DNA of 63,177 nucleotides, filler included, from Atractiella rhizophila (taxonomy: Eukaryota): NCBI GenBank assembly GCA_021432655.1. It is 3 parts of 3 records of this genome, joined end to end, with 100 filler letters (N's around TTAATTAATTAA, not from the genome) between each part and the next. Parts side by side here need not be neighbours in the genome. Positions count along the whole stretch, not along the records: positions 37,424 to 63,177 come from MU271520.1; 2 more parts are not named here. The stretch is one strand, 5' to 3'. The notes below the pieces were generated by a model that was not told the DNA's origin, searched no databases, and saw only the letters and a list, made by a program, of their open reading frames with translations. Made by a program: the position numbers and the translations under genes. Below are positions 21,264-49,850 of this stretch, piece after piece (the first letter of the stretch is position 1; each line of letters begins with the position of its first letter).

Positions 21264-21344
21264 TTAAGTGGACTATCATGTCAACTGAGAAAACAGCAAC
21301 AGCCAATAAGATAACTGCAAATATAAGAAAGACGGTGGCAACAA

Positions 21345-22498
21345 TCATGACCAAAGAAGCTTGAACGTATTGTTAGGAGAAGATTTCTTTTCCCTCCTCG
21401 CCCCATCATGCATCTCCGTCGCGGCCTGTGCCTCTCCTTTAGATTCGTAGAGTCGTTGAGCATACTCCAGCTCTTCAAGGGCAGCGCTACTCTTCACTGG
21501 GCTGATCACAGCTCGATACCCTCCTGAGCACGATGCTTTCTTCTCTTTCCGCGGCGAAGCAATTTCGAGGGCTATTCACTCATCTTGAGCATCACGTTTT
21601 TAGCAAGAGCGCTAGAGCTCACAAATCGCCGTTTCTCCTCTAGGATTGGTATATCTTCGAGTCCAACCGGTCTGCCTACACATTGATCTTTTGTCAGCAT
21701 GCAACGGTTGAATAGTGCAGACAAGAGGCACCTCTCCAGAACACAGCGTTCGTCTTATCCAATATCTTCCTAACCCATCTTTGAGCCGCCGGTCTCATTC
21801 TAGGATCTCGGATGCCCTGACGCCTCTTTGCTTCCCAAACATTATGCTACCGCTCAACACCTTCTCCTCCAACTTAGGGCTTGCTCCCGTGTCCTTCTCC
21901 ACCGCAGCCTTGATCCCATCCCGGATGGACGCGATCCCGAGCGATTCGTCGCTGGCTTTAACCGATTCGATGAAGACCTCGACGAGAGGATTGTCATCCA
22001 CAGGTTGGACAAGATTGGTGAATGTGATGGTAATGGAGGCTGGGATTGCGGCATGTTCCGTGGAATCGAAAGTAGGCGCTGCTTTGAATGTGGGAGCGGC
22101 CATTCCTAGAGGCAGAATGGAAGGAAGTGCATCTAAAAAGCTTGGGTTGAGCCTTAGAAGGGACAAATCTGAGCTCGTCATCGTCGTCTTCGTCTTCGCC
22201 TTTTCTGTCGTCCTCTTGTCCGGGAAAGCGGTTGTAGAATCCTCCAAGGAGATCTCGATTTCTCTGACGGATGTAAGATGCGAAAGGACACACTGATTTC
22301 GTTCACTCCCAAACCGTGCTCTTCCAAATAATCGTGGAGGCTCTCTTCTGACATTCTGGCCTCGTTTGCTTTCGCCCGTTCAAATTCATTGAGTACACTG
22401 GGGAGGAGTGGGAAGGGGATAGTCTGAGGAGCCTGGCTATCAGCATTTCATTCTCTGTCAGATTGAAAGCATACGGATACTGCCAAGAGGTTGGACAT
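21345..22498 (-). CDS. hypothetical multi-exon protein
   Basis: Exon-like segments (APQTIPFPLLPSVLNEFERAK...; ORF 21795-22247; RPAAQRWVRKILDKTNAVFW; AALEELEYAQRLYESKGE) bounded by plausible GT-AG introns. No family recognised. Confidence 0.5.
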
Positions 22499-22822
22499 GG
22501 CACTTATATTATTATCGTAAGCAATATAGCTAAACACGTAAATCGTTACTGGAGCGGGTCGTAAAAGTAGCAGCAGAGATCCAGATGTTGGCTGTTTACT
22601 CAACTTCAATGCGTAAAGAAGGTTCGGAGAATATGGGAGTGTAGTCACGTGCTTCTCATCAGCTTTTGGGCTACACGTCTACACGTATTTATTGAAGGGA
22701 CGAGTTCTTGGGAAGGTCTGGGTCTTGGACCAGATATATGCCTTGAGGGAGCGAAAATGAGGATTCCATGGGTTCAGTGAAAATACAACGACAACCATCC
22801 ATTTCATTGCGGTCACTCCCAC

Positions 22823-24127
22823 TCAACCGGTGAGAGAAGTTGTCTTCCCAGCTGCGAAACTGATCTTAGCCTACACATCAACGCACCACCGAGTGTCATC
22901 AGTATTTAATTCAGCTTGAAGGGAAGGGAGGAGGAAGGCGAACGATTGCATCCTTATCCGTCTCGCACGAGAGGTAGGTTCCAGGTCGGAACTCGAGAGG
23001 GAGGGCTTCACATTTGGTGGAGGCGGGACAGGCCGATGTGACCCATTGCTTGTTAATGCACTGTTCGCACATTCCAACCGGGTCAGTTCTTCAGCTTTTA
23101 CGGGTACGGGAGAGAAAGAAAGCGAGTAAAGGAAGGGTTAACGAACCTGGGCGAAGCCTCCATCCAAGCACGCCACGCTTCCGCTCCTACACTTCTCGTT
23201 CGAGTTGATTGCCGCAAACGACTTATTCAGCCTCTGGGCCTTCCTCACGTTCGACGTTCGCATCTGGGCGAGCAGCTTTCTGAAGAAGTTGGCGATCGCG
23301 CTATTCCCGTTCCCATTGCCACCTTTTCCGCCTCCCGATCCACCGTTATTGTTTCCTTTCCCAGTGGAGGTAGCAGCAGCGGAAGAAGTCGTCTTCGTCG
23401 CGTTGCCTCCACTGGCTTTCGTGGTCGTGGTCGCGGTGCCGGCTTTGGAGGTGCTCGTTCCCGCCGCAGCTTTGGAAGTGGTTGTGACCGCCGCAGCTTT
23501 GGAGGTGTTGGTGGGAGGAGTGGCGATCTTGGTTGGTTGGCCGGCAGAGGGGGTGGAGGTGCCGATAAGAGTGCGTGGGTTTCCAATGTCTCCTCCGTCG
23601 TCTTCACAGTCGGGTAGGTTATCGTCTCCAAATAGTCCTCCAGTTGCACCGGTGGCTGCAATCCTTCGCTCTGTAACGGCAATGTAGTATATTAGATGTC
23701 ATCGATGGTGCCGAGGGAAGGGGGTGAGGACACACCAGCATCCTCTTGCGTGTCACATGTAATGCTAGTCCCTGCCTTATTAACCAAGGGAAGAACTTGA
23801 CAGCTCAATCCACTAGGGCATTGAGTAAGGAGCCATTTTCCATTGCCGCATTGAGCGAATTTGCCTGTCATCAACCGATGTATTGGCATCATTCGAAAAT
23901 CAAGGGAAAAGCAGAGAAACCAGCGCACCATCGATACACGCCAAGTCTCCGGTGTTGCACGCATCGGAGGCAGAGAGCTCGGCGAAATCCCTGTTCAGTT
24001 TCTGGGCTTCTTGTCCATTTGCGAGTGTGAATTCGGCACGTCTGAAGTGGCGATGAGAATTGGAAGAGGGGAGGGGGAAGGCGAGGGAGAGGGAGAAGAG
24101 AGGAAGAAGGGCGAAGATGGCGATCAT
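22823..24127 (-). CDS. secreted protein with two Cys-rich CBM19-like domains separated by a Thr/Ala/Pro/Gly-rich linker
   Basis: Signal peptide MIAIFALLPLFSLSLA. Domain 1: NGQEAQKLN..F..L...CNTGDLACIDG.FAQC.NGKW....C...LSCQVLPLVNKAGTSITCDT. Domain 2: NVRKAQRLN..F...CRSGSVACLDGGFAQCINKQW...C....CEALPL...GTYLSCET. Confidence 0.8.
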
Positions 24128-25133
24128 GTCGTTTGTTGGTGTCCTGGTAGTAGGAAAGAATGAAGTGCAGCTGGTGCAGAAAGAATGACAAGCGCTAGGC
24201 TTTGGATGGATGGACGGTAGGCGAAGAAAGAAGGTAGAGTCCACCGGACTGTTAAAGATCGAAATGTCACGAAGGACGATAAAGAAAGACGAAGTTCGCT
24301 TTGCGAAGGACGACGACCACCTAAACTTCAAGTGAAGGGACAACTGAACTCGAGTTTCGAATCAAAAGGGAAAATCATGAAGCGGACTCTGCCTTTATAT
24401 TCCAACAAGATAGGTTGTTCAGGCACAGCGTGAAGTGAACCCGCCCGAACAGATGGAATGTGGGCTCTCCGAGTCTGCCTCCTCATCACAAGATAGCATG
24501 CCGAAAGGAGTTTCATGAATTGTCACCTGGAGACGGCCTTTCTCCGAGAGCGAACATGAGATGTGCTTTGTCCCCTTCAGGCACTTCACGTTGAATGAAA
24601 TAGACACTAAATTTGACTAATAAGTTGGCCGTCCTGAGTTTCACGGTGAAGGCTGTGAATAAAAAAGATTGGAGAATGTGCAAGCAAGAACAGTCCATCC
24701 TGAATTCTTCAGGACACCCACTGCCAAACACGCGTCTCGGAATCAAAACTAGGAACATGATGGTTCCTGAATGTCTCCTCTCTCCCCCTCTATTCTGATA
24801 TACGAGAACATATTATCCTTCCCTATCGTGTATGATACCGCTGAGACAGAAAGACTCTACAAGAAGAAAGGAAATTTAGAGAATCAGGATGAAGTATCAC
24901 GTGAGGAACGTAGCATCTCGGGCCTTCTGCTCACATTGCCGGGAGGAACCTGAAACGACGACGTGAAGCATTCTTCTCCTCCTCAGCAGACAACCCCTCC
25001 TTCATTTGTTACATATTTCGTGCGCATAATCTCTACTAGTTTACTCACGAGTGTCAGTATACTGACTTCCGGTGGCGAGTAAAGGTCACGTCACGAATTC
25101 ACGCATTCAACTAATTTAGAGGAAGCTGCAAGA

Positions 25134-28100
25134 ATGTCTACTGGCAGCATTGTCAACGGCAATGGCTCTTACTCTAGTTCCAATGGGGAAGGAACAGAAC
25201 ACACATTACGTCAGTCTTTCCCTTTTTCTGTCCTCCTGTCGTTCAAGTTGTGCTCTGGGCAGAAATCATCGACGAGTCTCAACAATTCAGGTCTTTCCCT
25301 CTCCTCCCTTCCTTCCATATCTGAACCTTCTCCGTGATGGAACAGCACATCCGTCCCAGACTCTATTAAGCGCTGGGGACTCTATGACGCCGGTTTCGGC
25401 TACGACGTCGTTGCTGTGTTTGGGAGTCAGAGCACGGGGAAGAGTACGTTGTTGAATAGGTTGTTTGGGAGCAAGTTTGCAGTTATGAGCGAGACGGAGA
25501 GGAGGCAGACTACTAAAGGTGCGTTTTTATGGCATTTGTATTTGGGATGTTGGCGCCGCCAAGTTGGAGTGGAAGGACGAGAAATATTGACGGTTGTGCA
25601 GGTATTTGGATGACCCGTGCGAAGGGGATGAACGTCCTTGTCATGGACGTAGAAGGAACAGATGGAAGAGAGCGCGGCGAAGACCAAGTCTGTAGCCTTC
25701 TATCAATATCCATTCCTTTCAGCCTGACAAGAAGAGCAGGATTTCGAGCGCAAATCCGCCCTTTTCTCACTCGCCACTTCCGAAGTCCTCATTGTCAACC
25801 TTTGGGAGCATCAAGTTGGCTTATACCAAGGTGCAAATATGGGACTTTTGAAGACTGTCTTCGAGGTCAATTTGGGCCTCTTTCAAGCTAGTTCGAAAGG
25901 ATCTTCGTAAGCGTCTCCTCTCCACATTCGTTGGTTCCTGTTTGTTTAATGGAAAAATGGATAGGCAAGGACGTACTTTACTCCTCTTCGTCATCCGGGA
26001 CCACGTCGGCTCCACCCCTCTCGCAAACCTGCAGAACACGCTGACGTCGGACATGGCCAAGATTTGGGAAGGGCTCTCCAAGCCTTCAGGGTTGGAAAGT
26101 GCCAGGTTAGAGGATTACTTCGACCTCGCTTTTTTCCCCCTTCCACATAAAATCCTCCAGCCGGAGGAATTCGAGAAACAAGTCTTAGTCCTTAGGAAGA
26201 GGTTTGAGGATTCGAAGGACCCGGATTTTGTTTTTAAGCCGGTTTATCATAAACGCATTCCGGCTGACGGAGTCGGAGCATACATGAATGGGATCTGGGT
26301 TCGTGTCCTACTATGCTTTCATTTTTTGAATTGACGTGATGGGGATGATAGGACCAAGTCGTCTCCAATAAAGATCTAGACCTCCCCACTCAACAAGAAC
26401 TCCTCGCCCAATTCCGATGCGATGAAATTGCTGCTGGTGTGTTCGAAGTCTTCGAGGGAGCCGTCAAATCCTTCCGTCGCCCCGTGGAACAAGGCGTGGT
26501 GGTTCCAGAGCTAGGAGAGGGTATGGGAAGTGCCAGGAAGACGGCACTGGATAAATTTGACACCGCCGCATCTAGATATCACCAAGGGGTGTATCACAGG
26601 AAGCGTGCAGATCTATTGAGCAAGATCAACGCTTCGCTCTCGCCCCTGTTCTTGGGTCAGGTCAAGAATTCGCATAAGGCTATAGTCCTCTCTTTCAAGA
26701 CGAGAATCCTTGAACGCCTCAGAGGAGAGGGGTACGATTTCGGAGCGGTTGTGAGAGAGGAGAGGGAGAGGGCGGAAAGTACGTTTGATGAGGAAGGTGG
26801 GAAGGTGCTTTTGACAGAGACGGAGTGGAGTTTGGAGGAGAGCAAGAGTCAACTCTTGGACGAGTTGGAGACGATCGCGGCGGAGTGTAGGGTGGAAGAG
26901 ACGAAGAAGATGGTCGCGCTCATCGACAGGAACCTTAAGAAGGACTATGGGGAAAAGGTCGAACTGGCTTTGAACAACCCGGAGAAGGAGATGTGGGATA
27001 AGGTCGTTGGAGCTTTCGTTGGTGCTTTGGAGAAGGCGGAAAATACATATTTGAGGAAAGCGAAGGGTTTGTCTGCCTCTCTCTACTCTAATTTTCCTCT
27101 TCCGAATTGTCAATGAGCCTTGCTGAGGAGTTACGTTGGGGATGGGACGACAGGATTCAACTCAACGGACGAGGAGAATGAAAGTGCCCTGAAAAACTTG
27201 AGGAAGAAAGCGTGGCTGAGTCTGACAGCAAAGATTGACGAACAGACGGCTGATACCGTCATGCTTGTTAAATTGAAGATGGCTTTCGAAGAGAGGTTCA
27301 GATACGATGATGACGGTGTACCAAGGATTTGGAGACCAGAAGATGACATTGATGGACTCTTTAGGAAGGCGAGGGAAGCAGTAAGTCACCTTTGCCTCCG
27401 GAAGTCGTGCATTTGCACGTGAAATGCTAATGGAAGCTGACTACGTTGTTTGATCTAGACCCTCTCGTTAATACCTCTTTACTCGAAAATTTCACCCACC
27501 AATCCCGAACTCTCCTCGTTCTCCCTTCCGTCCGAAGCATCCGAAGAGACTGACCTTACGGAACCCGAATTCGACTTCCCGTCCACATTGATCATCTTCA
27601 CCGAATCTAAACAAGCCGATCTTGCATCGCGCTTCCGTCGCGAAGCGGACGCTTACTACGTCGAGGCGAAACGAAGTATGGTCTCGAGCATAAGTCAGAT
27701 TCCTTATTGGATGTATGGCGTCGTTGCTCTGTTGGGATGGAACGAATTCATCGCCGTCATTCGCTCTCCAGTCTACTTTACTATGCTACTAGTTCTCGGA
27801 GCGGCCGCATATGTTACTGTCGCGTTGGGCATGGTTCGTTCTTACCCCCCTTTTATTCCTTAATTCAGTGATACTGACGCGGGTGGGATCTGGCTTAGGC
27901 TGGTCCGGTCCTCGCTCTGGGACGTGGAATCTCGAGGGAGGTGTTCAGAGTTGGGAATGAGCAGTTGCGCAATTATTATGCTGGGGAATCTGCACCTAGT
28001 GCACGGGTTCACGTACGCCTTTCCTTCTGCCTTCTAACTTCTACTTTTCCATTTCACCTTGAATCCATGAAGATGCTGATGAGTCATGGAATAGCCACCA

Positions 28101-28163
28101 TCAAGGCGAACAGAGCAGGAGGATATTCCGATGCGGGACCTGAAGGAGAAGAAAGATGCCTAA
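25134..28163 (+). CDS. SEY1: Sey1/RHD3 atlastin-type ER-fusion GTPase
   Basis: [97 protein letters not shown], and TM hairpin [17 protein letters not shown]. Confidence 0.97.
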
Positions 28164-28605
28164 GTGAAAGGCAGATGGAGTTGCATTGTAGGATGTAGAG
28201 CAGTGGATCTGTTGATCTGGTTCTTTTACAGTAATTATTCTTTTCATTTCGTGCCCTTACAGTATTTGTTTCGTAGCATTGTTTCACAAGCCACTGTTGC
28301 ATCGCTTCGTCGCTCAACATGCAATCGTGATATCCTCCCTCCAAATGATGTCAGGCCCAATAACTTGCAGCCTTGTCGTTATGAACTTTTGCTGTGGGAG
28401 CTCACAATGACAGTTGATGAAAGGCTGTCGAGTAGTAACTTACTGGACAAATAAAAGCCAGTCATCCAAAGGATACATGTTCCCTTCGGCAATCATGAAG
28501 CTCGTAGACTTGGAGTATCGTCATGTATGTGAGATAACATTGTATTGATATCATTGATACCGAAGCCATAGAAATCTCTGAAACCACTGAACCGGCTCTT
28601 CTCGT

Positions 28606-30525
28606 TCATTTCTTCCTTTGCAATTCATATCCTCCTTCCTGAAAAGTGAAACGGAAGTCGTGTGCCACAACCAAAAAATCATCATTCATCGGCTCTTTCC
28701 CTGCCCCTGCTTCAATCGTTGCTTGCAAATCTGAAAACTGATCTTGAATAGCCGAGAAGCTCGCACTCTGAGCCGTTTCATCATTGTAAAATGTTCGTAT
28801 AGTCATATCAAGGACAGATTTACTCGCAAGTCCTGCTGCGCGTCGTCGCCGCAAATATGCAGAAACTTGGAATATCGGGATGTAGCAGTGATGGATCGCT
28901 AGCTCAGTGATAAGGGGGCAGTGAAAGGATTGGAGAAATTCAGGTGTGATGATGCCTGACCGTTCGTGCAGGCCGTCGAGATGCAACGTGCGAAGGGGAC
29001 AGAGGTTGAAAAATGTGTCTAGCGGAAGTTTGAAGACGATGTAACGCGATCGTCGCCGAGGGCGCAAGGAGAACTTGAAGTAATGTAGCCACCACCCATG
29101 AAATAGTACTACCTGCAGGATGTCTTGATATTGTAGCCCTTCCAGCCAATTCGATGACAATTCGAAGATTTGCCGTGGCTGTGGCTTGGTGGGAAACTTT
29201 ACATCATGACGATGGGGCCTCCCGATATAAAAAGAATCTTTGATGAAGCCACTTGAACAAACTATCATGCTCGACATGCAATGGATTATCTGATGGATGA
29301 CCTCCCTCGATATAAATGAGTTCGTGATCGCCAGGAAGTGGATTTTTCTTTGAGGTACAGGTTGAAGGCAGGACTGCGGCAGCGGGACGAGATCCCAATA
29401 CGAGAGACCCAGACCCATCAAACTCGTTAGTCTCTGTTCCAAGAGGAGGAAAAGGTCCTCTGCGTTCCATTTGTTGGGTGCACTCTCTTCTTTGTCCCAA
29501 GATCCGATCAAAAGAAATTCAAGACGCTTCAGAGCTCCTAACTGCAAAAAGAATCTGTTTCTAGATAATTCACTCGAAGGTTTTGGAAGTTGAAGAGTAA
29601 CATCTTGCAAGTTAACTGCTTCATGGAGGATAGAATCTATAGTGCTCCAAGTGCCATGTTGAAAATCCTTTGTTTTGAAGCCATTCCTGGTCAAGACCAA
29701 GCATTTGATCCAAGGCACAATACGTTCCCGAAAGGTTGCATACATGGGAATAATGAGAAAGTCATATGCCATCTTCCCTGCATATTGACAAATTTTGTGA
29801 AAGGCAATTTCGTCGAACCGTTTGCAGACTAACCGGAAACGCTGTATTATTTCCAAATTGACGCCTTCCTCCAATATTTTTGTCAAACAACAGTCAACAA
29901 GCTCGGTTGGCAATTGTGAAAACGGATCGAGCCGCCACGGTTGAACGAACTCAAACTGAAGATTGAAGCCTGTCATATAGCGTTCTCCTTTGGAAATCAA
30001 ATTTCGAGACATTAATTCGACGAAGGTGCCACCCAAATTGATGTTGTTCGAAAATGACATTTCCTCCAAATCCGATTGAGAATCGCGGCTAAATTCTATC
30101 TCTCGCATGCCAATAGAGACCCGCGGCTTCTTCCTTTTCACATAGAAAGACACGAAGGTCTCGAAGACGCAAATTTCTTTGTCCGAGATATCGAAAACAG
30201 ATTTGGGTTGTTCATCTACTACTACCACAGCCATCTTTTTGGAAATGTAGACCTTCTTGCCTTCGGCGAAAATCTGGTTTTGGACTGCGGTGCTCGCCAC
30301 TGCACGAGCTGTAAAACCAAGGCGCTCTCCTTTCTTGGTATGCGTGACGAGGGAGAGTAGCATGACAATGCTGAATCTAGCCAAAGTCAGCGAGTGAAGA
30401 TGAAATAAGCATGGCAATGGGATCCTCTGCGGCGTTGCTGCGCACCAGATGCCAGTGGAGAGCAGGAAGCAACAAAGCAACGGTCCAAACTTCAAAGCTG
30501 AGAGACTCACACTTGCTTGTTTCAC
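28606..30525 (-). CDS. F-box-containing hypothetical protein (start uncertain)
   Basis: Long uninterrupted ORF with internal F-box-like DPFSQLPTELVDCCL...RFRLVCKRFDEIA, followed by LRR-like segments. Confidence 0.6.
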   Translation of the reverse strand: MKQASVSLSALKFGPLLCCFLLSTGIWCAATPQRIPLPCLFHLHSLTLARFSIVMLLSLVTHTKKGERLGFTARAVASTAVQNQIFAEGKKVYISKKMAVVVVDEQPKSVFDISDKEICVFETFVSFYVKRKKPRVSIGMREIEFSRDSQSDLEEMSFSNNINLGGTFVELMSRNLISKGERYMTGFNLQFEFVQPWRLDPFSQLPTELVDCCLTKILEEGVNLEIIQRFRLVCKRFDEIAFHKICQYAGKMAYDFLIIPMYATFRERIVPWIKCLVLTRNGFKTKDFQHGTWSTIDSILHEAVNLQDVTLQLPKPSSELSRNRFFLQLGALKRLEFLLIGSWDKEESAPNKWNAEDLFLLLEQRLTSLMGLGLSYWDLVPLPQSCLQPVPQRKIHFLAITNSFISREVIHQIIHCMSSMIVCSSGFIKDSFYIGRPHRHDVKFPTKPQPRQIFELSSNWLEGLQYQDILQVVLFHGWWLHYFKFSLRPRRRSRYIVFKLPLDTFFNLCPLRTLHLDGLHERSGIITPEFLQSFHCPLITELAIHHCYIPIFQVSAYLRRRRAAGLASKSVLDMTIRTFYNDETAQSASFSAIQDQFSDLQATIEAGAGKEPMNDDFLVVAHDFRFTFQEGGYELQRKK

Positions 30526-30725
30526 TCAGCCAAGAATGAGACTCTGAGCAGTTCTCGAGGAGGTTGAGGAGGTGTAGCCGCAGCCAGAGGCTGTGCTGTT
30601 CCTCTTGTCCCCTTGTCATCTGTTTGAGTTTGGCAATTTGAAATGCGGCATCTTTGCCGAAAAAGGAGGTCGACGAAGACTATTATAGTTCAGCTGGTCG
30701 CACAACGGGAAGAAAGAAAGAGGGG

Positions 30726-32242
30726 ATGAATCTCTCAGGGACACTCAATTTTTTCCGTGTGTTTCTCAAACCAAATCTCGTCGTTCCAGACTTTCGCGTC
30801 CGTGGTCAGTCTTCCATTCTCTTCTCTTCCCAACCCAACCACAAAGTCGATTGCTGCGTCTCCTGATGCTGATGCTCTTCGGTGACTGGGCCAGATATAC
30901 GCTCGCTCAATTTTCCTGAACTGAAAAGGAGAGGCGTCATTGGTGTGGTATTTGATAAGGACAACTGCTTGGTTCGTTACCTTCTGCATCCATATCTGTT
31001 CATCTGTTCGGATGTTGAAAGTAGCGAAAATCTTATGAATTGCGCTTTATAGACGTTGCCGCATAAAGACCAGCTCGTACCTGCCCTCAACGTGCGTTGA
31101 CCTCCCTTATAACCGGCATACAACAGCGCTCACTCTCTTTCCGTGGAAGTAGGAATCCTATGCTTCCTGCTTAGATACCTTCGGAAGACAAAATGTGCTC
31201 CTCGTGTCTAACTCGGCAGGGACAGTAGACGATTCTACATTGGTGCAGGTGCATCACCGCTACTCTTTCTTCGTGCCAAAGTGTAGTCCTGATGCAGGGA
31301 CTGAAACAGGCTGAACTTGTCTCTCGCTCCCTGTATGGTGTCCCCGTGCTCGTCCACAAGACGAAGAAACCGGGATGTTGGAAACAAGTGGACGATTATT
31401 TTCGGTCACTCCACCCACCGCCCACCGTCGAAAGTCCATCTCCCCCTCCTTTGCGATTGACGAAGAGGAGGAGAATTCCGGAGGTGGTGCAGAATGTGCC
31501 ACTAGAGCACCTACCGTGCGCCTGCAGTCCTCTATCCTCCCCCTCCTCTTCCTCCAGATTACACGCCTCAACCCTCACCCCCTCCAAGAGCACGCCAACT
31601 CGCTCCGCGTCCAACGGTACCAGTTACGATGCTTCTCCTCCTTCTTTACCCTTACCGTCCAAGCCCATAATCTTAATAGTTGGTGATCGCGTCCTTACCG
31701 ATGTCGTCCTCTCTTCCTTCCTCCTCCGCTCCTCCTCCTTCCTTCCACTATCCGTTCTGACCACTTCTCTCTGGGCTCGCGAAGGGGTACTAAACACCTT
31801 CGTGCGGTGGTTAGAGGATTCGGTCTTATTAGGAGGAGTGATGAGAATGAAGAGGAGCGGTTGGGTTGGTCCTAAACATGAGGCAGAGATTGAGAAGATT
31901 GTGGAGAGTCTGAGAGAGGACAGGTCGGTGGAGGATGCGCCAGTCGTTATGAAGAAGTGGACGAGCGTGCAGGCGTGGCGGGAGAAGGGGAGAGCGGTCT
32001 ATTATGTCGCCACCCATCCCGTGCTAGCCGCTAAAGGCTTTGCAGAGGGCTTGATTGTGCAGCTGAGGATTGGAGGGAAGTGGGTGGCACGCGAAATGTG
32101 GAGGTTGACTAGGGTAGGAGGGGAGTGGTTGTGGATTGTTGGCAGGCGGAAGGGCAAGGAGTGGAGTGTTTTCGTGTGGATTGCGGTGAAAGAGAGAGGG
32201 CTGAGGATGTGGAGGGAGAGGAGGGCGGTGCATGCGAAATGA
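30726..32242 (+). CDS. GEP4: mitochondrial phosphatidylglycerophosphate phosphatase (HAD IIIA) with C-terminal extension
   Basis: MNLSGTLNFFRVFLKPNLVVP, VVFDKDNCL|TLP, LLVSNSAG, VLVHKTKKPGC, IVGDRVLTDV. Confidence 0.88.
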
Positions 32243-32719
32243 ATGTGCGTCTTTCTGAATCTGATTCCTGCCAGCGTAGCCGTAGTACCTCGTTCACGCT
32301 CTACTTGCATCGTCCAATGTCGGAAAAGCACATTGCCTGTTTTCATGGTGACATAAGGATAAAAATTGGACCTATCCGGTCATCAAGTCATGAGAAAATT
32401 AGACTTTTGCTCGCATCTTGTTCCATGTGTCCCAAGCAGCGGCGACGAGAGAGCAATGCTGTGAAAACTGCTCCCCAGTGGACAGTGGATAGTGGTCTCG
32501 ATCACCAAGATTGAATGCTATTGTATTCCTAAGACTGAGCAGTGTTCGCGCGCACGTTTTTACTAGGTTTGAATATAATGGTATCATTGCACAGAGAATG
32601 TGGATCTGGTCCACTCCATGTCCTTTCCATTTGCCTGATTCGATTAGTCTGATTCATATCACACCTTCATCTCTCCCGGATATTCATGGATGACCCTTCT
32701 GAAGGACTAGAATCTGCCT

Positions 32720-33400
32720 TTACAACTTCTCAATGATAACAGCCGTGCCTTCATCATGATTTTAACCGTTAGTTGTAGTCATTGAGTGGACATACACGCA
32801 CCATAGGCACAAACCTGGCTGATATCAGGTCCAAGATTACCCTGGTCAAATCTCATGGTAATGATTGCGTTTCCTTTTTTTGCTTCAAAACCAAGTTGGA
32901 CATTGGACGTTCATCAAGCTCCGAAGAATTGAGGAGATGAAGAGATGACAAACCAATACACTCTCCTATCAGACGCTCGACGGCCTTATTCCGGCTGGAG
33001 TACATCATCTTTGTGTATGCCCCTATCTCACCTCCAACAAGTGATTTCAAACCCGCGCCGACGCTAGCAAAGACATTGCGAGAGCGGACAGCCTACCAGC
33101 GCGAATGACAGTCAATGTTTACGTGATAAAACTAGCAGTTGAAAAAGCAGACAATGCCATAGATGGTTCCTAGGACTTGGACAACTTTGTACCCAGGTAT
33201 GTCATTCATTGTAGAGATGAGTACGCCATGTGTTTCTTGGAGATGGAAGGTGATCTAATGTCCTTGTTAAAGACAGCAGACTGCAGCAAGATGAGGAAGT
33301 GAAAATGTGAACATACCGGAGCCACCTTCAAGGATTTGAAGTTTTCGTCCTCCTTCTTATCCTCTGCAGTAGGTTTAAAATTACTAGCGTTGGTCGCCAT
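32720..33400 (-). CDS. YbjQ/UPF0145 (putative heavy-metal-binding) family protein
   Basis: STMNDIPGYKVVQVLGTIYG, VRSRNVFASVGAGLKSLVGGEIGAYTKMMYSSRNKAVERL, GNAII.MRFD, QVCAYG|TAVIIEKL*. Confidence 0.88.
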
Positions 33401-34019
33401 CTTGACTTCCCTTGGACGTGAAAACTGGACTGTGGCCTGGACGTGCGATGGGAATGGGGTTGGGGAGCAGCGTCCTCTCCTTGCCTTAAATAGTTGTGAA
33501 TATTGCTGATTGAGGAGGGGATTTCGTGCTTGGGTGGAACTCCGCGTGCGGGTGCGGGTGCCAACGTTCTGCCTTTCGACTTTCAAATGATCCTTACATC
33601 CTGACCCTCATAACCCACCTCCTAGTCCCTCCCCTCTGTTCTAAATTCTTCGCACGAACCGAATCACAAACCATGGAGATCCATCCGCAATGAGCGACGT
33701 CCCAGTGCTTCCCTGGGTCCAAATCCCTTCCAAGAATGACTCAAGCTGTCGAACTATCTCGTGAACTCTACTGGGACTGGACCGGAAGAGATTGAATGTA
33801 GCGGAAGTTGCAATTGCTCAGGGCGTGTCAGAGAGGAAGCGAGGTGAGCTATTTTCCAACTTCTCAACCTTTGAAACCACCAACTTGAAGCCGAGGTTCT
33901 TACTTGCCGTCCATCGCAAACTGTGTTTGACGTTTGACGTTTATAGCACACAATTAGACAGCTTTATTGTTGCAGCTGAGGTAGATAACACTCTGTTACC
34001 CAGAAAATCAAAATGGTAA

Positions 34020-34470
34020 TCTAGAAACCGCGAGGAAACACAACCTCCGTCTCTACGCTTTCAGTCCCACAGCAGGAGGAATCTTCGCAGGAAAATGGAA
34101 GAGTAAGAACGATATTCCACCTGGACGGTAAGGGGAATCTCTGCCTGCTTCCAACGCATTTGAATCCAGCTTCGAAGGCGATCATCGGATCGCGAAGTTG
34201 TACAGACAACTCTTTCTCCACGACAATGTTTTCGACGCGCTTCAATCGCTCCAAACCACGCTCGCGAAATACGAAATCAACGGCATTGATGCAGCATTAC
34301 GGTGGCTGGTATTTCATTCGAAGTTGGATTGGGATCAGGGCGATGGAGTGATATCGGAACCTCGAAATTGGAGCATATTGGTGCGAATGCGAGTTCTTTG
34401 AGGAGTGGACCGCTGCCCAAGGAGGTGGTGGAGAGAATGGACGCGATGTGGTTAAAGATGAAATTCCTCA
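34020..34470 (+). pseudogene. 5'-truncated, frameshifted AKR7-like aldo-keto reductase fragment
   Basis: RKHNLRLYAFSPTAGGIFAGKW, AALRWLVFHSKLD..QGDGVI, then a 1-nt deletion (~34352) before GTSKLEH...SGPLPKEVVERMDAMW. No catalytic N-terminal half found. Confidence 0.75.
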
Positions 34471-35962
34471 AGATGAGGTCTTGTAATTATAATCGAATTT
34501 CTCTTCAAATTTGGAATCTCCAGTCTCACACCATAGTCTCAGAGTGCGTAGAATGTGGTCGTGCTCGTGGAACCGTAGCCTGGGAAGGACATGCCATATT
34601 TTGATGGAGGACAACAACCTTGGGAACCCAGTCCCAACTCGTCCCAACACACGGAAACTCGCACCTAAAGTGAAGCGTAAGGCACTTATAATAATACTGA
34701 ATGATTTGAAATACCTATCCAGCTCATGGAAACTCGTTGCAAAAACCAAGAGCAGATTCAACGGAATGCAGAACCCTTGGTGAAATGATGGTCATCGAAA
34801 AAAAAACAAAGACCTCCAACTCAAGCGCTTCGCAATAAACTCATTCTGCCTTAGAATTGGACTCAAATAGGCTAGATTCTACACACTCCCAAGGGGAAAC
34901 TCTCAAATCGACAGCTAGTCCCAGTATCCAAGTTGTGCGAGGTTCCTCATGTTGATGGCTGCTTCATTGATAGGCTTGTGTTGAATCGAGAGGAAAGAGG
35001 GCATCAAAGTTTCATTGATCTGATTACTGCAAAGGTTGTCATCTTTGGTATGTCTCTTTTGAGATGCTGGATTAGGTTGTTTCTAGAGGTCATGGGCACC
35101 ACTTTTCTGTCAACAAACCCAAACCTGCAAGTTTCTCAGGCTCCATGGGTTCGACTTGAGGAACTTGCCCACTGTGGTGGAGTTCTCAAAAGAAGCAAAA
35201 TAACCGTCAGAATGAGATCTAAGGTTTACGGATTGCATTTCAAGGGAGGAACGTCACATGTGTCTTGATAGAAGGTGATGAATTTCGTCCTTCGCCCACG
35301 CGTAGCTCGAGAGGATTCTTCCTCTTTTCCTCGCTTTGAGCTTTGGCAAAAGTGCCTTGGAATGAAAATGGGATATCCTCTCTCAGAGAAGCCACCCGAT
35401 GTCTCCCAGGCTGCATTTGCGCCATAAAAGAAGTGGGAAGAGCCAGAAACGATTTTGCCATCCAGTTTCGCAGGGAGGATGAGATTGGAACTTGTGAAAA
35501 TCGATCCAAGAAACCCAAATCCGTCAAACTTGAGCTTGAACTTGTCGAAAAGTTTGGAACTACCAAGAGCGGCATTCACACTGCATGGTAATTAGAAAAT
35601 CGATAACCCAAACCTGACTTATGGTCAAGTTGGACCTGTTTGGCAAGTTTGTACTTGACCGAGGTGACCTAAGGCGGGCCTCTATCGCTTTGTAGATTCC
35701 AGATGGAGGAAGCCCAGGAGGAAGCGCGTTTGTCTGCGGTTCAATTTTATGTGTTGGTTCCTAGATTGGAGCTCCTTTATTTGTGTGATGGCCAGCAGAT
35801 CATCCCTGTCGCAGCATAGATTTTGTTCCCCCCTTCAAAGTTTGCGATGCTGCATTTGAGACTGTGATGGAGTGGGATATAAAACTGAAGCGCAGGAGGA
35901 GGAACATCAGCACGAAAGAAGCAACTCTTTCTTGACTTTGAGTCTTTCGAAACACCTTTAAC

Positions 35963-36857
35963 ATGGCACCAGTGAGTTGTCTTTCTTGTCAACTCTTTTC
36001 ATTGTCTGATTGATTTCTTGCATAGTTTTTGATGCACTTGAGCCCTGGAGAAGCTTTGTACACGGAAGGTATGTCGTTTGATCCACCATGATTCCAACCG
36101 TTGAGTATGTTTTTTTAGTTGCCAATCGCTTTTCGAGGAGCTGGAAAGATAGCACGAAGACTTTCCACATCACCGACATTTTCTACATCAACCACAACGG
36201 TTCTGAAGCGCAACAACATCTCTACAACCACTCCAACTACACGTATGTTCTCTCTCTCATTCAACCCAATTGTTATTCATGTCGTGGTGTAGTTCACGTG
36301 TTGCGTCGAAGAGGGGTCTTGACACACAGTCTGCTATCAGCTATCACTTCCATGGCACCCAACGCGCATGCTACATTGGCGAGAACTCCAGAGCTATCAA
36401 CACCTGCTCCAACCGCGACTGTCACCTCTGCTCCTTGATCAAATGCTCCTTCCAGCTCAAATATGTCGGGCAAGACAACGCACTTGGTCCTGGCTTCTAC
36501 ACCAGCGCAACCTCCAACAGTTCGTTCCTTCCCCCTTCCTCCCCCTCTTATACTTCTCTGACATTTCTGCGTACAGAGGCGGATGGATACGCGAAGAATG
36601 CAGATATCAGGTCAAAGAAACATGCAGTGTTGTTGGGAGATGTGACGACGGGAAGGAAGGAGGTGGTGTATGATTGGGATTCCGATAAGGATGGCCCGAG
36701 GTCTGGATACGACTCTGTGTCTCTTGTACCTGGACATTCTCAGAGCAAGAAGAAGAGAAAGCCAAAGTGGCCAGAGACGGTGGTGTATAGAGAGGAGGCG
36801 ATTTTGCCTAGTGTGGTGATCATGTACACCCGCACCGGATGGAAGGAGAATAGCTAG
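35963..36857 (+). CDS. stand-alone PARP-catalytic-like ADP-ribosyltransferase
   Basis: TATA-like gatataaaa at ~35877. Exons MAP|FLMHLSPGEALYTE|VANRFSRSWK...; FHGTQR, LGPGFYTSATSNKADGYA, VLLGDVTTG, GYDSV, PETVVY...AILP. Confidence 0.8.
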
Positions 36858-37323
36858 AGGAGGCGCGCTGGATCTTAATTTTTGAATTTGATTGTGTTCT
36901 GTGTATGCAAATACCAGCCTACTTCTAACCAAAGATCTTCCTCAGACCCTGCCCCAAACTTCAGTAAGGACACCACAGCTCTCGACCCGTTAACGGCTGG
37001 CACCAAAGCTTTCGCTTTCAACCAGCCAAAAAGCTTTGAGCATGATTCGAGCATCCGTGATTGCCATGCTGGTCAAAGTGACTTGCAATCGAAGCTATAG
37101 AGGTTTATATATTAAATCAAAAGAGGTTTTCTCAACTATTCATTTCATGGTCATATTGGGTACGAAGTTGGGGCACTTACAGCTGGCGTGCTGATGGAGG
37201 AAGCTGGAAGCAAGGGATAGCACATTCTGGTTAGTATTTCGATTAAAGTAGTATAGGGTAGGCTTCTCACCCCACAGAGCAAGTTGGTCAAGTCAAAAGC
37301 CGGACCTTCAAGTAGAATTTCAA

Positions 37324-37423
37324 NNNNNNNNNNNNNNNNNNNNNNNNNNNNNNNNNNNNNNNNNNNNTTAATTAATTAANNNNNNNNNNNNNNNNNNNNN
37401 NNNNNNNNNNNNNNNNNNNNNNN
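37324..37423. other. artificial contig-joining spacer (N44-TTAATTAATTAA-N44)
   Basis: Same 100-bp construct as 21164-21263. Confidence 0.97.
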
Positions 37424-37433
37424 AAGAACCAAC

Positions 37434-38866
37434 CTGACGACATTGGAGGCATGAAGCCGTGCTCCCAGGAGGAGGATAGACACATTCCTTTCCACGATCG
37501 GCACAAGCCTTACAAGGCAATCCATTCTCCGATATACATTTTCGTTTTTGCTATCCCAAACCAAAAAAAATTGAATTGTCAGCACTGTGAGCCTGTAAGT
37601 ATGGGACGAGGATGAGACTGACAGCTCTACAAGCGACACAGGAAGTGCCTCTCCTCTTCCTACGTTTATCCTTCCCTTCCTCCGCATTCGGATCCAAAAG
37701 CGCATTCGACGACCTATCCAAAGGGTCCATCCCAAACCCATCCAATCCAGAAGCGGCCGACCTCGAGAGCGCCAACAGGTCCGTGAACTTCCTCCCACCC
37801 TCCCCTGACCCTGCCTGTCCATGTCCGCCTCCGTACTGTGCTGCTGCCTCCCCATTTCCGCTCCCACTCGCACCAGCACCCGCCCCCGAGCTCAGATTGA
37901 TATTGATATCGTGCCTCCTCGATAGCGTGTCGCCTGTTCCTCCTCGCATGTCGACGTCCCCTGATTGGTCCCCAGCTAGCTGGTCCTCTTCGTAAGACTC
38001 CTCCCTCAATCCTCCAACTGGCGGAGCTCTCGTGGACGCTGGTGCTGATGCTGATGCTGATGGGGGGTAAGGGCTTGCAAGTTGGAATTGCGCAAGGTGA
38101 GGAGGATAACTGTTATTCGGGACGGGAGATCCTTGCTGGTGCTGAACGGAATTCGAGGACGAGGACATGTAGAGGTTGTTATGGTCAGGGGAACCGGTTT
38201 CGATGGTCGTCGAGAGAGAAGGATTAGGATTAGGGAGGGGATCTGATATAGCAATACAAGGTCGAACCCGACGGGTTTTGGTTGTCAGGACGGGGATGGG
38301 CTAAGGGTGGAAGGGGGGAGGGAGGAAGGACTGACCGCGTTTGTGATTATGGCGTTTATATAGAGAGGCGGGAACGCATTCCTTCCCATGCGCCTGACAC
38401 ATCATGCAGGAGCTTTCATTTTCCGCCTTTTCGCACTTGGTCTTTTGCTAAATAAATACAATCCAATCCGGAACCCAACCCAAAACCGAAGCAAAAAGTT
38501 CAAAGTCAGCGAAACCGAGCTCTTGACTACCGCCCTTACCCGCGCACATACTAACCATACCACGGTAGAGTGGGGTAGTATTAGCCGGGAGGAGGTTATT
38601 TTGGGCTGGAGACAGAAAGGGGGCGGGAAACCATGTTCTCGTACTCACCATTTTACAGAATTGACAACTCGAAGGCTTTGAAGCCGGGACGATACATTCC
38701 TTTCCTCCGTCGAGGCAGGATTTGCAGGGGATACCGTTATCGAGGATGCATTTCTTTTTTTGCTGTATGTCGTCGTTATCCGTCACCGATCAGATCCTGA
38801 GTCCGGGGAGGAGAGAAAGGAGACGCTCACGCTTCGACAAGCCAGACAGGCGCTCGGTGCGGGCAT
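37434..38866 (-). CDS. multi-Zn(II)2Cys6 transcription factor, 5' part (three complete clusters plus start of a fourth; truncated by contig end)
   Basis: Exons 38866-38831, 38762-38649, 38447-38336, 38242-37623 and 37550-37434 have GT-AG boundaries and join in one frame, giving three CX2CX6CX7-8CX2CX6C motifs and a final CLQCRQ. Confidence 0.85.
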
Positions 38867-41601: not shown

Positions 41602-44600
41602 ATGCTGCCCTCCAATCCCCGTCGTCCCCAAAACCCACCTCAGCCATATGCCCAACAGGCAGAGAACTACTCCAACGTCTCCGTTGGTTCTTACGCCAAC
41701 CGTCCTCCCGCCGGAATGCCATCTCAGTCCCAGGAAGCCCTAAACTCCAACTGGTACCCTCCACCGGACCCATATTCGTTGGAGGAGAACGTTCCACTTT
41801 CTCCTAGTAGACGAGGAGGAGGAGGAGGAGGTGCTGGATATCCTCCTACTCCGAATGGGAACTATTTGCCCCCTGGTATGTATTTTGGTTCTAGTTATTA
41901 TATATTTGGGCACATGCAAGACGGAAAGCATAACGGGAAACGTTTTTTCTGATGCGTTGTATTGAATGATGGTGGGTGACAGGGAGGTCGCCGTACCATC
42001 CCCAGATGAACAGACAAGGCTCCAACTCCTCCGAAAACGAAGCCTGGAACCGACGAGCGCGCGCTCCCCAGCGTGGTCTCACCCGTAAAGTGAAGCTGCA
42101 GGTCAGTCTCTTCTCTCCTCTGAGCCGTCCATTCTCATTTGATGAGCTGGCGTGGGACAGAATGGAAACTTCATATCGGACTACAAGGTCCCGAGTGCGA
42201 TCGTCAATGCGACGGAGCAGAAGTGGAAGGCGGGCGTGGGACTTGGGGAGAAGATGAGGGGGGAGGAGAAGGAGTTCACTCATATGAGGTTCGTGTTGCT
42301 TTCATCTTCTTCTACGTGTTCTGTGTAGTGGTGCAGTCAGAGCATGTCAATATGTCACGCCTCTCTGAAGAGGAGAGGTGCGAGAGTAGAGCCACACTGC
42401 ACCAGAGTGAGCGAACAGTACTGTGGATGGATGGATGGAGATTCGCTCTGCAAATGATCAGTTTGCATTGAGGGAATCCGGTGCATTGCGTGACATCCTA
42501 ACCCATGATTGTTGAATTCTCGGACCTTGGATCACTCTATTCTGGGGATGTGGAAGAGCAGCAGCTGACCGAATCGACCGGATAGGTACACGGCGGCGAC
42601 GTGCGATCCCGACGATTTCGTCCCCTCAGCAGGCTGGAATATCCGTCAGAGGATGTGGGGACGAGAGACGGAGCTGTTGATCGCTATCACGTACTACAAC
42701 GAAGATAAGCTCTTGCTCGCTAGGACCCTCCATCACGTCATGCTCAACATCAGAGACATCGTTAAATCCAACAGCAAGTATTGGAAGGGAGACGCTGAAC
42801 GCGCCGGAAGACCCAGCTGGCAGAAGATTGTCGTTTCCCTCATTTTCGATGGCATCGAACCCTGTGATAAGAATTGTTTGGATGTCCTTGCTACCCTTGG
42901 TGTCTTTCAGGATAACGTCATGAAGAAGGACGTGGATGGAAAGGAAACCGTCGCTCACATCTTTGAGGTAAGAAGATTTCCCCCCTTCTTCGCATTCTGT
43001 GGCTCATGATGTGGAATGTAGTATACGACCCAGCTGTCCATCGACACCAGTCTCGCCCTCGTCACTCCTCAACCTAACGATCCTCACAACCTCGTCCCCG
43101 TCCAAATGATCTTCTGTCTGAAGCAAAAGAACTCAAAGAAGATCAACAGCCACAGGTGGCTCTTCCAAGCTCTCGGTCGCTTCCTCGAAGTCAGTCTTCC
43201 CCTTCTCCATAACCCGTCACCCAAACGATCCTGAGACGCATCTAACGGAATGTTGGTTGGTTGGGTGGAATAGCCGAACGTCTGTATCCTCATCGACGCA
43301 GGAACGAAACCGTCCCCAATGTCGCTCTATTATCTCTGGAATGCCTTCCACAACGATAAAAACCTAGGTGGCGCTTGTGGAGAGATCCACGCGATGTTGA
43401 AGGGAGGAAAGAAGCTCCTGAACCCTCTCGTTGCGGCTCAGAACTTTGAATACAAGATGTCGAGTGCGTCTCCTGCCTTCTTCCCCCTATAAAACTCTTC
43501 AAAGTCTCGCCCCGATGCAAAACCCTTGCTGATGAGGCGATAGACATCCTGGACAAACCCCTCGAGTCTTCGTTCGGCTACGTTTCCGTCTTGCCCGGCG
43601 CTTTCTCTGCGTATCGTTACAAGGCTCTCTTGGGAAGGCCCCTCCAACAATACTTCCACGGTGATCACGTCCGTTCTTCCATCCCTTCTATTCTCCTGTT
43701 TTTAACTGACGATTCACGATTTGATGTTGATTGAATAGACTATGGCGGCCCGACTTGGAAAGAAGGGAATCGATGGAATGGGCATCTTTAAGAAGAACAT
43801 GTTCTTGGCTGAAGATCGTATCCTCTGCTTCGAACTCGTGGCTAAGGTTTGTACCCTGTTCCCTTTCTCGTTCCTTGAAAACGTGATGCTCACGTAATTT
43901 CAGGCAGGAGATAAATGGAAGTTGGGATATGTCAAGCCTGCCAAAGGAGAAACGGATGTGCGTCTTTTTTGATGGCTTCTCGGACCTTGGATTTACGTGT
44001 GCTGCTCGGTAAAGGTCCCGGAAGGCGCGGCTGAGTTGATCTCGCAGAGAAGGAGGTGGCTCAATGGCTCTTTTGCCGCTTCCGTATACGCTCTCGTTCA
44101 CTTCACAAGGATGTTCCGCTCCGGGTACGCTTCTAATCCCCCAAACCCCCAAGGTTGGCCGAAAAAAGGGTTAGACATAATGTCATCCGACTCTTCTTCT
44201 TCATCATTCAGGTTAGTACTCTCAGTCCAACAAAGCAGGTACTGAGTGTGTCCTCCATAGGCACTCTACAATCTCTTCCAACTCATCTTTACTTGGTTCG
44301 CTCCTGCCAATCTTTGGTTAACTTGTGCGTGTCTCCTCCTACAAAAAGACTGGAACCTGAAGTGATGTTAAAGTCACCATCATCGTCGATCTCCTTCCCA
44401 AGAACGGTACCTTCCTCTTCGGTACTGAAGAAATCACTCATTGGGTATGACATTTCTCTTCATTGTGGTCATTTACTGATATATCTTAGGTCAACCTTGG
44501 TGCTAAATGGCTCTACCTGGTGGGTAACATATCCACGCCAATGTAATGGTCTAATCCCGGAACTGTTCAGGCTGCTCTCGCTCTGTCCTTCGTTTTGGCT

Positions 44601-45947: not shown

Positions 45948-47470
45948 GTCAATGTGGAATGCATCGTTCTTTGCCTCTGCTTCTATAATTCCTTTCGTCG
46001 AAGACCTTCAGTTCAGCAAATGTTCCTTCCCTTCTCGAGCAGGCAAACTTGGAATCAGTGAACCGGTAATGTCATCAGCTAGCTCGTTTATTTCAACCAG
46101 GCAATGGGGCTCCAATATTTCGTACAGAACAGATTACATGACCTCCCACTTGGCCCTCTCCATACCTTCCATCCCATGGTCCATGTTCGAACTATCCCAC
46201 TCCTCAGCCTTCATCTCACAAACACACCCTACATTCCATCTACGACCACATTCACTAGCAGGCAGGATGTTGTCGTAAGCAGGTAAGCTAACATCTTCTT
46301 CCCTCAACCTGCAGGAAGCGATGAAGACTTCCTTTCGATTCACAAGACGGCGTGTCTTCCATTCTCCACGAGATTCTGGACAAGGGGCGAGGGAATAAGT
46401 GAGCGTTAGTTCGAGAGAGTGAGAGTGGCGAATTGGTGTGCTTGAAGTTTGATGTGTTGATGGAGATAAGGAGTGGTGATCTGGAAGCCTACGTTACAAA
46501 GAAAGATGAGCAACAATTGCGTTGAGAAGAGCATGAAAATTAGGATATGTACCTAAAGACCGAAGAATGGTTCCAATGCTCCCCCTCTTCGATCTGCGCA
46601 ATGTAAGCTTCGCTTCCACCTCCTTCATCCGCCGTCCGAAACTTGAACATCCTTTCATTTCCAAAACCAGGCGCGGTGGAAGGAGCCGAAGACCGGTTCA
46701 TCTGCAACAGTACGAGCCTTTCCTCCTTCATCTTCGATTCTTTGCCTTCTTTCGTACACAGCGTCGTCTGTTGCACGACTCCAAATTCCAGGCGTTGAAT
46801 GCGCACGGTGCGGGAAGACGGAAGGTAGGGAAGTGAGAACGTGACGAGGAGAGGAGAGCCGACTGTGAGAAGCCGACAAGAATAGTTTACATCAAACACC
46901 TATCCTCCAAGGGTAAGCTCTTTCGAAAGAAGAGCAGGAACAATTGCGCACTCCGAGGTCTGTTGTGTGGTCGTGAACTCCCAACGAGGTGCTACGAGGA
47001 TCTTCGTTGCCATATGGATTGAGCACCACGAAGATGGGCTGGGTGCTTTCGACGCGAGTGACTCCGAGAGGTGTCTGATAGGACACCAAGCCTGTGATCT
47101 TTTCCCATCAAAGAATTGTCTTCAGCTATAGCCTTGACAAGAAAGAAGAAGCAACACACTTCAAGTCGTACCCGTCCCCATTTCCCCTCCTCAGAAGTCG
47201 CTACTGTACTGGGTAGAGCAATAAGGAACTCCCAAATCTTTTCTCCTCCTCCAACACTTCCTTCTCTCGTTATTGTCATGACCGTTCGGTCGTAGAGTAC
47301 TCTCTTCTCCCACGCTCTGTCTGCCCACAAAACCTCAGCCACATTCTGTATCTTCACCTCCGAAGCATCTACTATCACGCTCCTACCGCTTCGAGGTATT
47401 TGCAGGGTCAAAGTTCCCCTTAGAAGGCACTCTTCACCTGCGGATGATGGAGAAGCTTGGATGATACATT
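45948..47470 (-). CDS. arrestin-fold (alpha-arrestin-like) protein; boundaries approximate
   Basis: LLRGTLTLQIP, WEFLIALPSTVATSEEGKWGRV, PIFVVLNP, IRHSHSLELTLTY, SCRL..EDVSLPAY (PY-like motif). Confidence 0.65.
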
Positions 47471-49232: not shown

Positions 49233-49850
49233 AGAGCCGACTGTGAGAAGCCGACAAGAATAGTTTACATCAAACACCTATCCTCCAATGGTAAGCTCTT
49301 TCGTAAAGAGAAGCAGGAACAATTGCGCACTCCGAGGTCTGGGGTGTGGTCGTGAACTGCCAACGAGGTGCTACGAGGATCTTCGTTCCCGTATGGATTG
49401 AGCACCACGAAGATGGGCAGGGTGCTTTCGATGCGAGTGACTCCAAGAGGTGTCTGATAGGATACCGAGCCTGTGATCTTTCCCATCAAAGAATTGACAT
49501 CAGCTATAGCTTTGACAAGAAAGAAGCAACACACTTCAAGTCGTACCCGTCCCCATTTCCCCTCCTCAGAAGTCGCTATCGTGCTGGGTAGAGCAACAAG
49601 GAACTCCCAAATCTTTTCTCCTCCTCCAACACTTCCTTCTCTCGTTATTGTCGTGACCGTTCGGTCGTAGAGCACTCTCTTCTCCCACGCTCTGTCCGGC
49701 CACAACACCTCAGCCACATTCTCTATCTTCACCTCCGAAGCATCTACTATCACGCTCCTACTGCTTCGAGGTATTTGCAGGGTCAAAGTTCCCCTTAGAA
49801 GGCACTCTTCGCCTGCGGATGATGGAGAAGCTTGGATGATACATTATTGG
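49233..49850 (-). pseudogene. 5' half of a second copy/allele of the arrestin-like gene, cut at the duplication junction
   Basis: ORF 49265-49786 is nearly identical to 46892-47411. Confidence 0.75.

Follow-up and report, generated by a model that had tools for sequence, protein, structure and literature searches.

Our analysis of a 63,177-nt stretch of Atractiella rhizophila DNA, filler included (hereafter, the window), reveals one gene whose product very likely carries at least three genuine Zn(II)2Cys6 clusters, with the beginning of a fourth visible at the end of the contig and its continuation visible in transcripts. We regard the product, with moderate confidence, as a nuclear DNA-binding regulator whose one polypeptide bears four Gal4-type Zn(II)2Cys6 clusters, arranged as two pairs, each of which may read DNA as a monomer. 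What is new is a four-cluster, two-pair array that lacks the usual partner domains and is hidden from the public proteome.

Structure of the gene and its transcripts

The window consists of three concatenated contigs (1–21163, 21264–37323 and 37424–63177). The four-cluster gene, which runs from 38866 to 37434 on the minus strand, sits close to where the third contig begins in window numbering, and all of the peptides that an earlier note on this DNA had quoted were found there, on that strand and at the places it gave. The note had also taken the gene to run into a contig end, which is correct, as positions 37324–37423 are occupied by filler of the form N44 + TTAATTAATTAA + N44, one of two such joins in the window. 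The contig end at 37424 truncates the gene, so that what remains of cluster 4 and of the 3′ part lies beyond the contig. A chitin synthase lies nearby, as do two arrestin-like ORFs, and nothing in the neighbourhood suggests a co-regulated gene cluster.

The spliced reading frame begins at the first ATG after an in-frame stop just upstream (start codon 38866–38864) and stays open for 333 codons over five exons, with GT..AG borders at all introns. Specifically, exon 1 (38831–38866; this and all features below are on the minus strand) comprises 12 codons and supplies the first two cysteines (CxxCxx) of cluster 1, which is interrupted by intron 1 (38763–38830, 68 nt, phase 0). Exon 2 (38649–38762) supplies the last four cysteines of cluster 1, a 9-residue spacer and the first two cysteines of cluster 2, while exon 3 (38336–38447), beyond intron 2 (38448–38648, 201 nt, phase 0), completes cluster 2 with its last four cysteines and adds a basic tail. 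Intron 3 (38243–38335, 93 nt), which connects the first pair to the long linker, is in phase 1. Exon 4 (37623–38242, 206 codons) encodes a linker rich in Ser, Gly, Ala and Pro, a basic KRRKRR patch preceding cluster 3, and the first two cysteines of that cluster. Intron 4 (37551–37622, 72 nt, phase 0) again lies inside the cluster, and exon 5 (37434–37550) provides the last four cysteines of cluster 3, a 10-residue spacer and the first two cysteines of cluster 4. Only the first 10 bases of intron 5 (37424–37433), including the GT donor, precede the contig end. The proposal that every cluster is split by a phase-0 intron immediately after CxxCxx is confirmed inside clusters 1–3, and exon 5 likewise closes in phase 0 after CxxCxx, at its GT donor ten bases from the contig end.

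The 333-residue product contains three complete CX2CX6CX7-8CX2CX6C clusters and the beginning of a fourth. Cluster 1 (38694–38848, residues 7–35, spanning intron 1) and cluster 3 (37482–37640, residues 289–317, spanning intron 4) read CX2CX6CX7CX2CX6C, cluster 2 (38376–38666, residues 45–74, spanning intron 2) reads CX2CX6CX8CX2CX6C, and the start of cluster 4 (37434–37451, residues 328–333) reads CxxCxx, with its remainder off the contig. The spacers inside the pairs measure 9 and 10 residues, as previously reported, and the linker between the pairs measures 214 residues rather than the roughly 220 first estimated.

To follow splicing, we compared four of the 24 listed public runs that contain the stretch (X1, X3, X4 and X6). 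X6 alone is an RNA library by its record, X4 is guessed to be RNA, the type of X3 is not on record, and X1 is DNA-type. X1 covers the region continuously and shows no joints. The splice junctions, which the earlier note had proposed to check against transcripts, are present as joints for all four introns: 37550/37623 (intron 4) and 38447/38649 (intron 2) were seen in X3, X4 and X6, 38242/38336 (intron 3) in X3 and X4, and 38762/38831 (intron 1) in X3, the latter appearing in X4 as 38762/38832, where a single different letter intervenes. Whether there is one gene or two had been set in advance to turn on the 38242/38336 joint, and its presence in two of the three transcript-type runs, together with a 661-letter contig (X4 record 13) in which exons 1, 2, 3 and 4 are joined, speaks for one gene. 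The same contig extends to 38933, giving a 5′ UTR of at least 67 nt. In addition, a 941-letter contig (X3 record 6) joins exon 4 to exon 5 and then continues for 578 letters past 37434. Some unspliced sequence is also present: X6 record 17 reads into intron 3 as far as 38274, and X3 contains unspliced intron 2 contigs of low depth (17.6 and 23.5, where the joint has about 209).

Contigs of X3, X4 and X6 depart from the window exactly at 37434 and do so with the same 30 letters, with one synonymous difference in X6. This continuation is in frame and places a Cys six residues beyond the second Cys of cluster 4, supplying the third Cys at CX2CX6C spacing; Cys 4–6 would lie beyond the recovered sequence. 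An identical in-frame continuation in three runs indicates that the donor at 37434 is used and that cluster 4 continues. With three complete clusters and a next exon that places the third Cys of another, the earlier estimate of at least three and very probably four clusters holds, and we consider it likely that cluster 4 is complete. Allowing up to 3 mismatches, neither of the window's other two contigs contains the 30-letter continuation.

Along the coding sequence, the runs differ from the window unevenly. Among the listed differences, 32 fall in coding sequence, 23 synonymous and 9 non-synonymous, and exon 4 carries 29 of them (20 synonymous, 9 non-synonymous). All nine non-synonymous differences affect linker residues 118–207 and none affects a cluster. 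The cluster-coding parts have a single synonymous change, and another synonymous one lies four residues past cluster 2. In the linker, one run lacks 3 nt at 38099 without loss of frame. This pattern fits a translated gene in which the clusters are under purifying selection and the linker is free to drift.

Family assignment and origin of the pairs

We scored the separate exon pieces against PF00172 (cut-off 21 bits), profile positions 1–8 falling in the preceding exons. Taken alone, the exon 2 piece matches positions 9–36 of 39 at 15.5 bits, the exon 3 piece positions 9–33 at 18.2 bits, and the exon 5 piece positions 9–35 at 21.1 bits, so that two of the three stay under the cut-off. All three matches begin at position 9, as expected if positions 1–8 sit in the previous exon. 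After splicing, clusters 1–3 show the PF00172 spacing CX2CX6CX5-12CX2CX6-8C, and cluster 4 is seen as CX2CX6C.

The spliced clusters align across their splice junctions with P0005, a single-cluster protein that came from a profile search and is itself Pfam-positive at 26.9 bits. Cluster 1 is 61% identical to it over 33 residues, and the corresponding value for cluster 3 is 55% over 38 residues. P0005 itself can be aligned with PDB chains of Gal4 (1d66), Lac9 (1cld), Ppr1 (1pyi), Put3 (1zme/1ajy) and Leu3 (2er8), and through it the clusters are linked to factors with the same six-Cys binuclear motif and basic stretch between Cys2 and Cys3. Such a basic stretch is present in the clusters. Furthermore, a Lys four residues past Cys2 is kept in all four clusters and is aligned, via P0005, to a Lys of Gal4 in 1d66. 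We take this to be the position that contacts the CGG bases in Gal4. A search of the ESM Atlas with exon 5 gave a best score of 0.82 to Zn_clus clusters, a weak lead in the same direction.

The back half of the motif ([KRQ][KR]x[KR]C..C..C..C) was found at three places when all six frames of the window were scanned, every one of them in the four-cluster gene. In 200 mononucleotide shuffles it was absent from 199 and occurred once in the remaining one, so its three occurrences are more than chance.

The two pairs resemble each other in sequence and in intron positions. Over 46 residues, short spacer included, the first pair (pair A) shares 52% identity with the second (pair B), and their introns are at matching positions. 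The identity between exons 2 and 5 along their full length, again with the spacer, is 53%. These similarities bear out the suggestion of exon-module duplication and identify the duplicated module as one of two clusters. Clusters 2 and 3 are 48% identical over 33 residues, and clusters 1 and 3 are closer to each other and to P0005 than to cluster 2. Judging from the similarity of the pairs and their matching introns, the simplest history would be one of two steps, in which one cluster with its intron was duplicated to give a pair and the pair was then duplicated.

A public relative and known multi-cluster proteins

A search with exon 4 against longer proteins found a sole relative, P0001 (hypothetical protein BT69DRAFT_1332918, Atractiella rhizophila, 676 residues). 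Residues 1–182 of P0001 correspond without gaps to residues 113–294 of our model, with 175 of 182 positions identical (96%), and P0001 presumably represents this gene as found in a close relative. The public model begins at an internal Met of exon 4, departs at the exon-4 donor and joins sequence downstream of exon 5. In transcripts, this donor joins exon 5 instead, and the P0001 model is demonstrably wrong at the junction after exon 4. PF00172 has no match in P0001, so that the public model carries no cluster and the public proteome hides all four. The idea that the introns conceal the motif is thus borne out by the model of a 96%-identical relative, and the available text of one report describes zinc-cluster exons as often overlooked by gene prediction (PMC10141177).

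The remainder of P0001 comprises about 490 residues, is rich in Ser and Pro, and ends in an HSP20-like domain. Residues 558–587 score 19.3–20.5 bits against HSP20 profiles (PF00011 considered), under the cut-offs, and an Atlas model of residues 538–676 aligns to HSP20 clusters with a TM of 0.58–0.65. Since the P0001 model is faulty, the HSP20-like part is only a candidate component of the four-cluster transcript. A combination of Zn2Cys6 with an alpha-crystallin domain was not found in the literature searched.

No relative with the same cluster layout was found in protein, profile or metagenome searches. Exon 4 gave no match among 1530 candidates in a word-indexed search of proteins of similar length, and a two-exon alignment (A2) run against longer proteins at E up to 10 returned 4 candidates, none of which scored. 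An exhaustive search with a 39-position inter-cluster profile gave 4 matches at E up to 0.001, including P0005; a profile of this length is too short for much power, and the result has no bearing on whether tandem pairs are absent elsewhere. The other three matches are unrelated repeat proteins, one with thrombospondin repeats and two with low-complexity repeats. In a metagenome collection, a scan for the P0001 protein pattern gave 219 pattern matches, none confirmed, and an exact scan for 28 nt of exon 5 gave none.

Zn2Cys6 factors are the largest family of fungal regulators, and domain databases list further multi-cluster architectures. In a Gal4-type factor each chain has a single cluster with a linker and a coiled-coil behind it; a pair of chains reads two triplets, and the way in which they dimerise sets the architecture of the site. 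Whereas such factors act as coiled-coil homodimers with a single cluster in each subunit, the protein described here has four clusters per chain and no helix-compatible hydrophobic stretch after either pair. Specifically, the longest Pro/Gly-free stretch in the 214-residue linker after pair A is 18 residues and polar, and beyond the P0001 junction the longest such stretch has 20 residues that are acidic or polar; by this crude test, no coiled-coil dimerisation element follows a cluster, and the second cluster of a pair comes after 9–10 Pro-rich residues. One class of Zn2Cys6 regulators carries PF04082 (Fungal_trans, the middle homology domain or MHD) downstream of PF00172. PF04082 is absent from the 333 residues, with no match in exon 4, and from the 676-residue P0001 at E up to 1. 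The exon 4 linker matched no Pfam family.

Multiplicity of clusters in one chain is itself known. The available text of PMC13532241 describes Bhr1 of Dichomitus squalens as a genetically proven transcriptional activator with two C-terminal PF00172 clusters and septin-like NTPase parts, and reports 41 proteins of this type, from Agaricomycetes only. Its counterpart in Pleurotus ostreatus, PoZCP55, is the sole two-domain protein described in the part available of a survey of 66 zinc-cluster proteins (PMC7295025). As far as these descriptions go, Bhr1 and PoZCP55 share with the four-cluster protein a basidiomycete origin and repeated PF00172 domains within one chain, and the four-cluster protein is set apart from them by N-terminal and internal clusters, the lack of a septin part and its origin in a Pucciniomycotina-type fungus. 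An Alternaria factor with two Zn2Cys6 domains is mentioned in an introduction (PMC10305253, in part), and the parts available of PMC3998117 and PMC5415576 contain nothing on repeated clusters. Our search for literature on three, four, tandem or multiple Zn2Cys6 clusters found only two-cluster proteins, and it is the number and arrangement of the four clusters that go beyond the literature.

A natural four-cluster chain without a dimerisation element offers a direct test of whether zinc clusters, like C2H2 fingers, can be combined in series. The array could reveal which triplet spacings and orientations a tether of 9–10 residues allows, which would be useful for the design of synthetic DNA binders. 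In addition, introns placed after CxxCxx make zinc-cluster domains vanish from public proteomes. As the closest public model has no PF00172 match, counts of zinc-cluster regulators and of multi-cluster proteins in intron-rich basidiomycetes are probably too low.

Proposed DNA recognition and its alternatives

In the mechanism that we favour, each cluster would bind two zinc ions, and the basic stretch between its Cys2 and Cys3 would contact a CGG-like triplet, both as in the rest of the family. No coiled-coil follows either pair, no MHD was found, and a second cluster comes after only 9–10 residues; we therefore propose the pair as an intramolecular stand-in for the dimer. The second cluster of a pair would replace the partner subunit of a Gal4-type homodimer, and each pair could read two closely spaced triplets as a monomer, with the stiff 9–10-residue spacer spanning roughly one turn of DNA. 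The 214-residue linker, predicted to be disordered, may allow both pairs to sit on the same promoter, each at its own bipartite site. This monomeric, multi-site mode of reading is put forward tentatively, at slightly less than even likelihood.

Binding without dimerisation has been described for Pho7 of Schizosaccharomyces pombe, whose Zn2Cys6 domain binds DNA in this way according to the text available (PMC6265462). Unlike our protein, Pho7 has a single cluster and, in the same text, derives its specificity from extended contacts over 14 bp and not from extra clusters (PMC6265462). Pho7 is thus a precedent for the proposed monomeric binding by a Zn2Cys6 domain. Polydactyl C2H2 arrays offer a further comparison: they are tandem small zinc modules in one chain that arose by module duplication, each reading a few base pairs. 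The C2H2 arrays are an analogy only, their fold and metal site being unrelated to those of the four-cluster protein.

The chief alternative is a different division of labour. This arrangement, in which only clusters 1 and 3 bind DNA and clusters 2 and 4 have diverged to serve in protein contacts, folding or zinc sensing, is less likely, at perhaps one chance in four. In that case the protein would bind at two sites, or it would still associate with a partner. The loop of cluster 2 is acidic, and the Pro that precedes the fourth Cys in clusters 1 and 3 and in P0005 is missing from it; for these reasons cluster 2 may not contact DNA. The greater resemblance of clusters 1 and 3 to each other and to P0005, noted above, points the same way, as does the start of cluster 4, whose Cys2–Cys3 segment is unlike that of the other three. 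However, cluster 2 retains six canonically spaced cysteines as well as the Lys at the fourth position past Cys2, its exon piece outscores that of cluster 1 on PF00172, and it has no non-synonymous difference between runs.

A bolder version of the four-cluster reading extends it in the opposite direction. Here the protein would be a single-chain, four-module 'polydactyl' factor that has neither a dimerisation element nor an MHD and reads four CGG-type triplets as two bipartite sites, and its alpha-crystallin end would couple binding to stress-dependent oligomerisation. No paper among those searched describes such an architecture, which would escape databases because gene callers miss the cluster exons. 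We consider this combination rather unlikely.

The assignment of all four clusters to one chain depends on exon 4. Positions 37869–37871 in this exon are bridged by no single transcript contig among those listed, X4 and X6 have zero depth at 37760–37871, and P0001 starts at an internal Met of the same exon. Such observations would fit two transcription units, with an internal promoter in exon 4 giving a separate product with clusters 3 and 4 and a four-cluster chain that is rare or absent. This arrangement is improbable. Exon 4 is one open frame with synonymous-biased differences along its full length, X3 shows coverage in all bins of the exon and the contig break coincides with a patch of variants, the 38242/38336 joint connects the first pair to the linker, and the public model that starts at the internal Met is wrong at its very next junction. 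The depth gap of X4 and X6 at 37760–37871 is low coverage. The case for a single transcript spanning clusters 1 to 4 is built on the uninterrupted ORF, the continuous depth of X3 and one DNA contig.

The preferred reading, of independent binuclear clusters, was also weighed against another zinc fold. Exon 5 alone gave a weak match to zf-C3HC4_3 (17 bits, under the cut-off of 27), and a PDB search with it gave only sub-threshold matches, to RING-like chains (XIAP RING, E about 0.02) and others. These RING-like matches may be read as an effect of the CxxC spacing. A RING-like cross-brace over the short spacer is highly improbable, as the matches are sub-threshold and rest on a CxxC-spacer-CxxC arrangement, whereas the spliced units have six cysteines at Zn2Cys6 spacing with a basic stretch and align end to end with a Pfam-positive Zn_clus protein.

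Linker variation and intron sequence in the regulator

The regulator combines a fast-evolving linker with unchanged zinc clusters. Variants between sequencing runs are dense at positions 37857–38208 of the Ser/Gly/Ala/Pro-rich exon 4 linker, and one run carries a 3-nt in-frame deletion in the linker at 38099. Intron sequence is present in some of the transcript-type contigs from two public sequencing runs, X6 (an RNA library by its record) and X3. In particular, record 17 of X6 extends into intron 3 and keeps positions 38243–38274, while X3 contigs contain intron 2 (38448–38648) at a low depth of about 18–24, compared with about 209 for the spliced form. These intron-containing contigs represent pre-mRNA, retained introns or DNA carry-over.

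HSP20-like end of the closest relative

P0001 (BT69DRAFT_1332918), the closest relative of the regulator, ends in the public model with an HSP20/alpha-crystallin-like domain (residues 538–676, outside the window). Pfam scores for this part are slightly under the cut-offs, and the predicted Atlas structure of the domain gives TM values of 0.58–0.65. If the domain truly belongs to the regulator gene, zinc clusters joined to a small heat-shock domain would constitute an undescribed architecture; a literature search on that pair returned 0 papers.

Window composition and neighbouring genes

The window comprises three contigs rather than a single molecule, joined at 21164–21263 and 37324–37423, each by an N44-TTAATTAATTAA-N44 linker, and features should not be interpreted across these joins. 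An additional N25 run lies at 62063–62087. A chitin synthase gene (42569–43009, plus strand; PF01644, 100.5 bits; PF08407, 41.8 bits), which probably extends to about 45400, is located ~3.7 kb upstream of the regulator start on the opposite strand. Further along, two minus-strand ORFs (46995–47468 and 49268–49843) each match Arrestin_N weakly, with scores under the threshold, over the same part of the profile; they may represent two arrestin-like genes in tandem.
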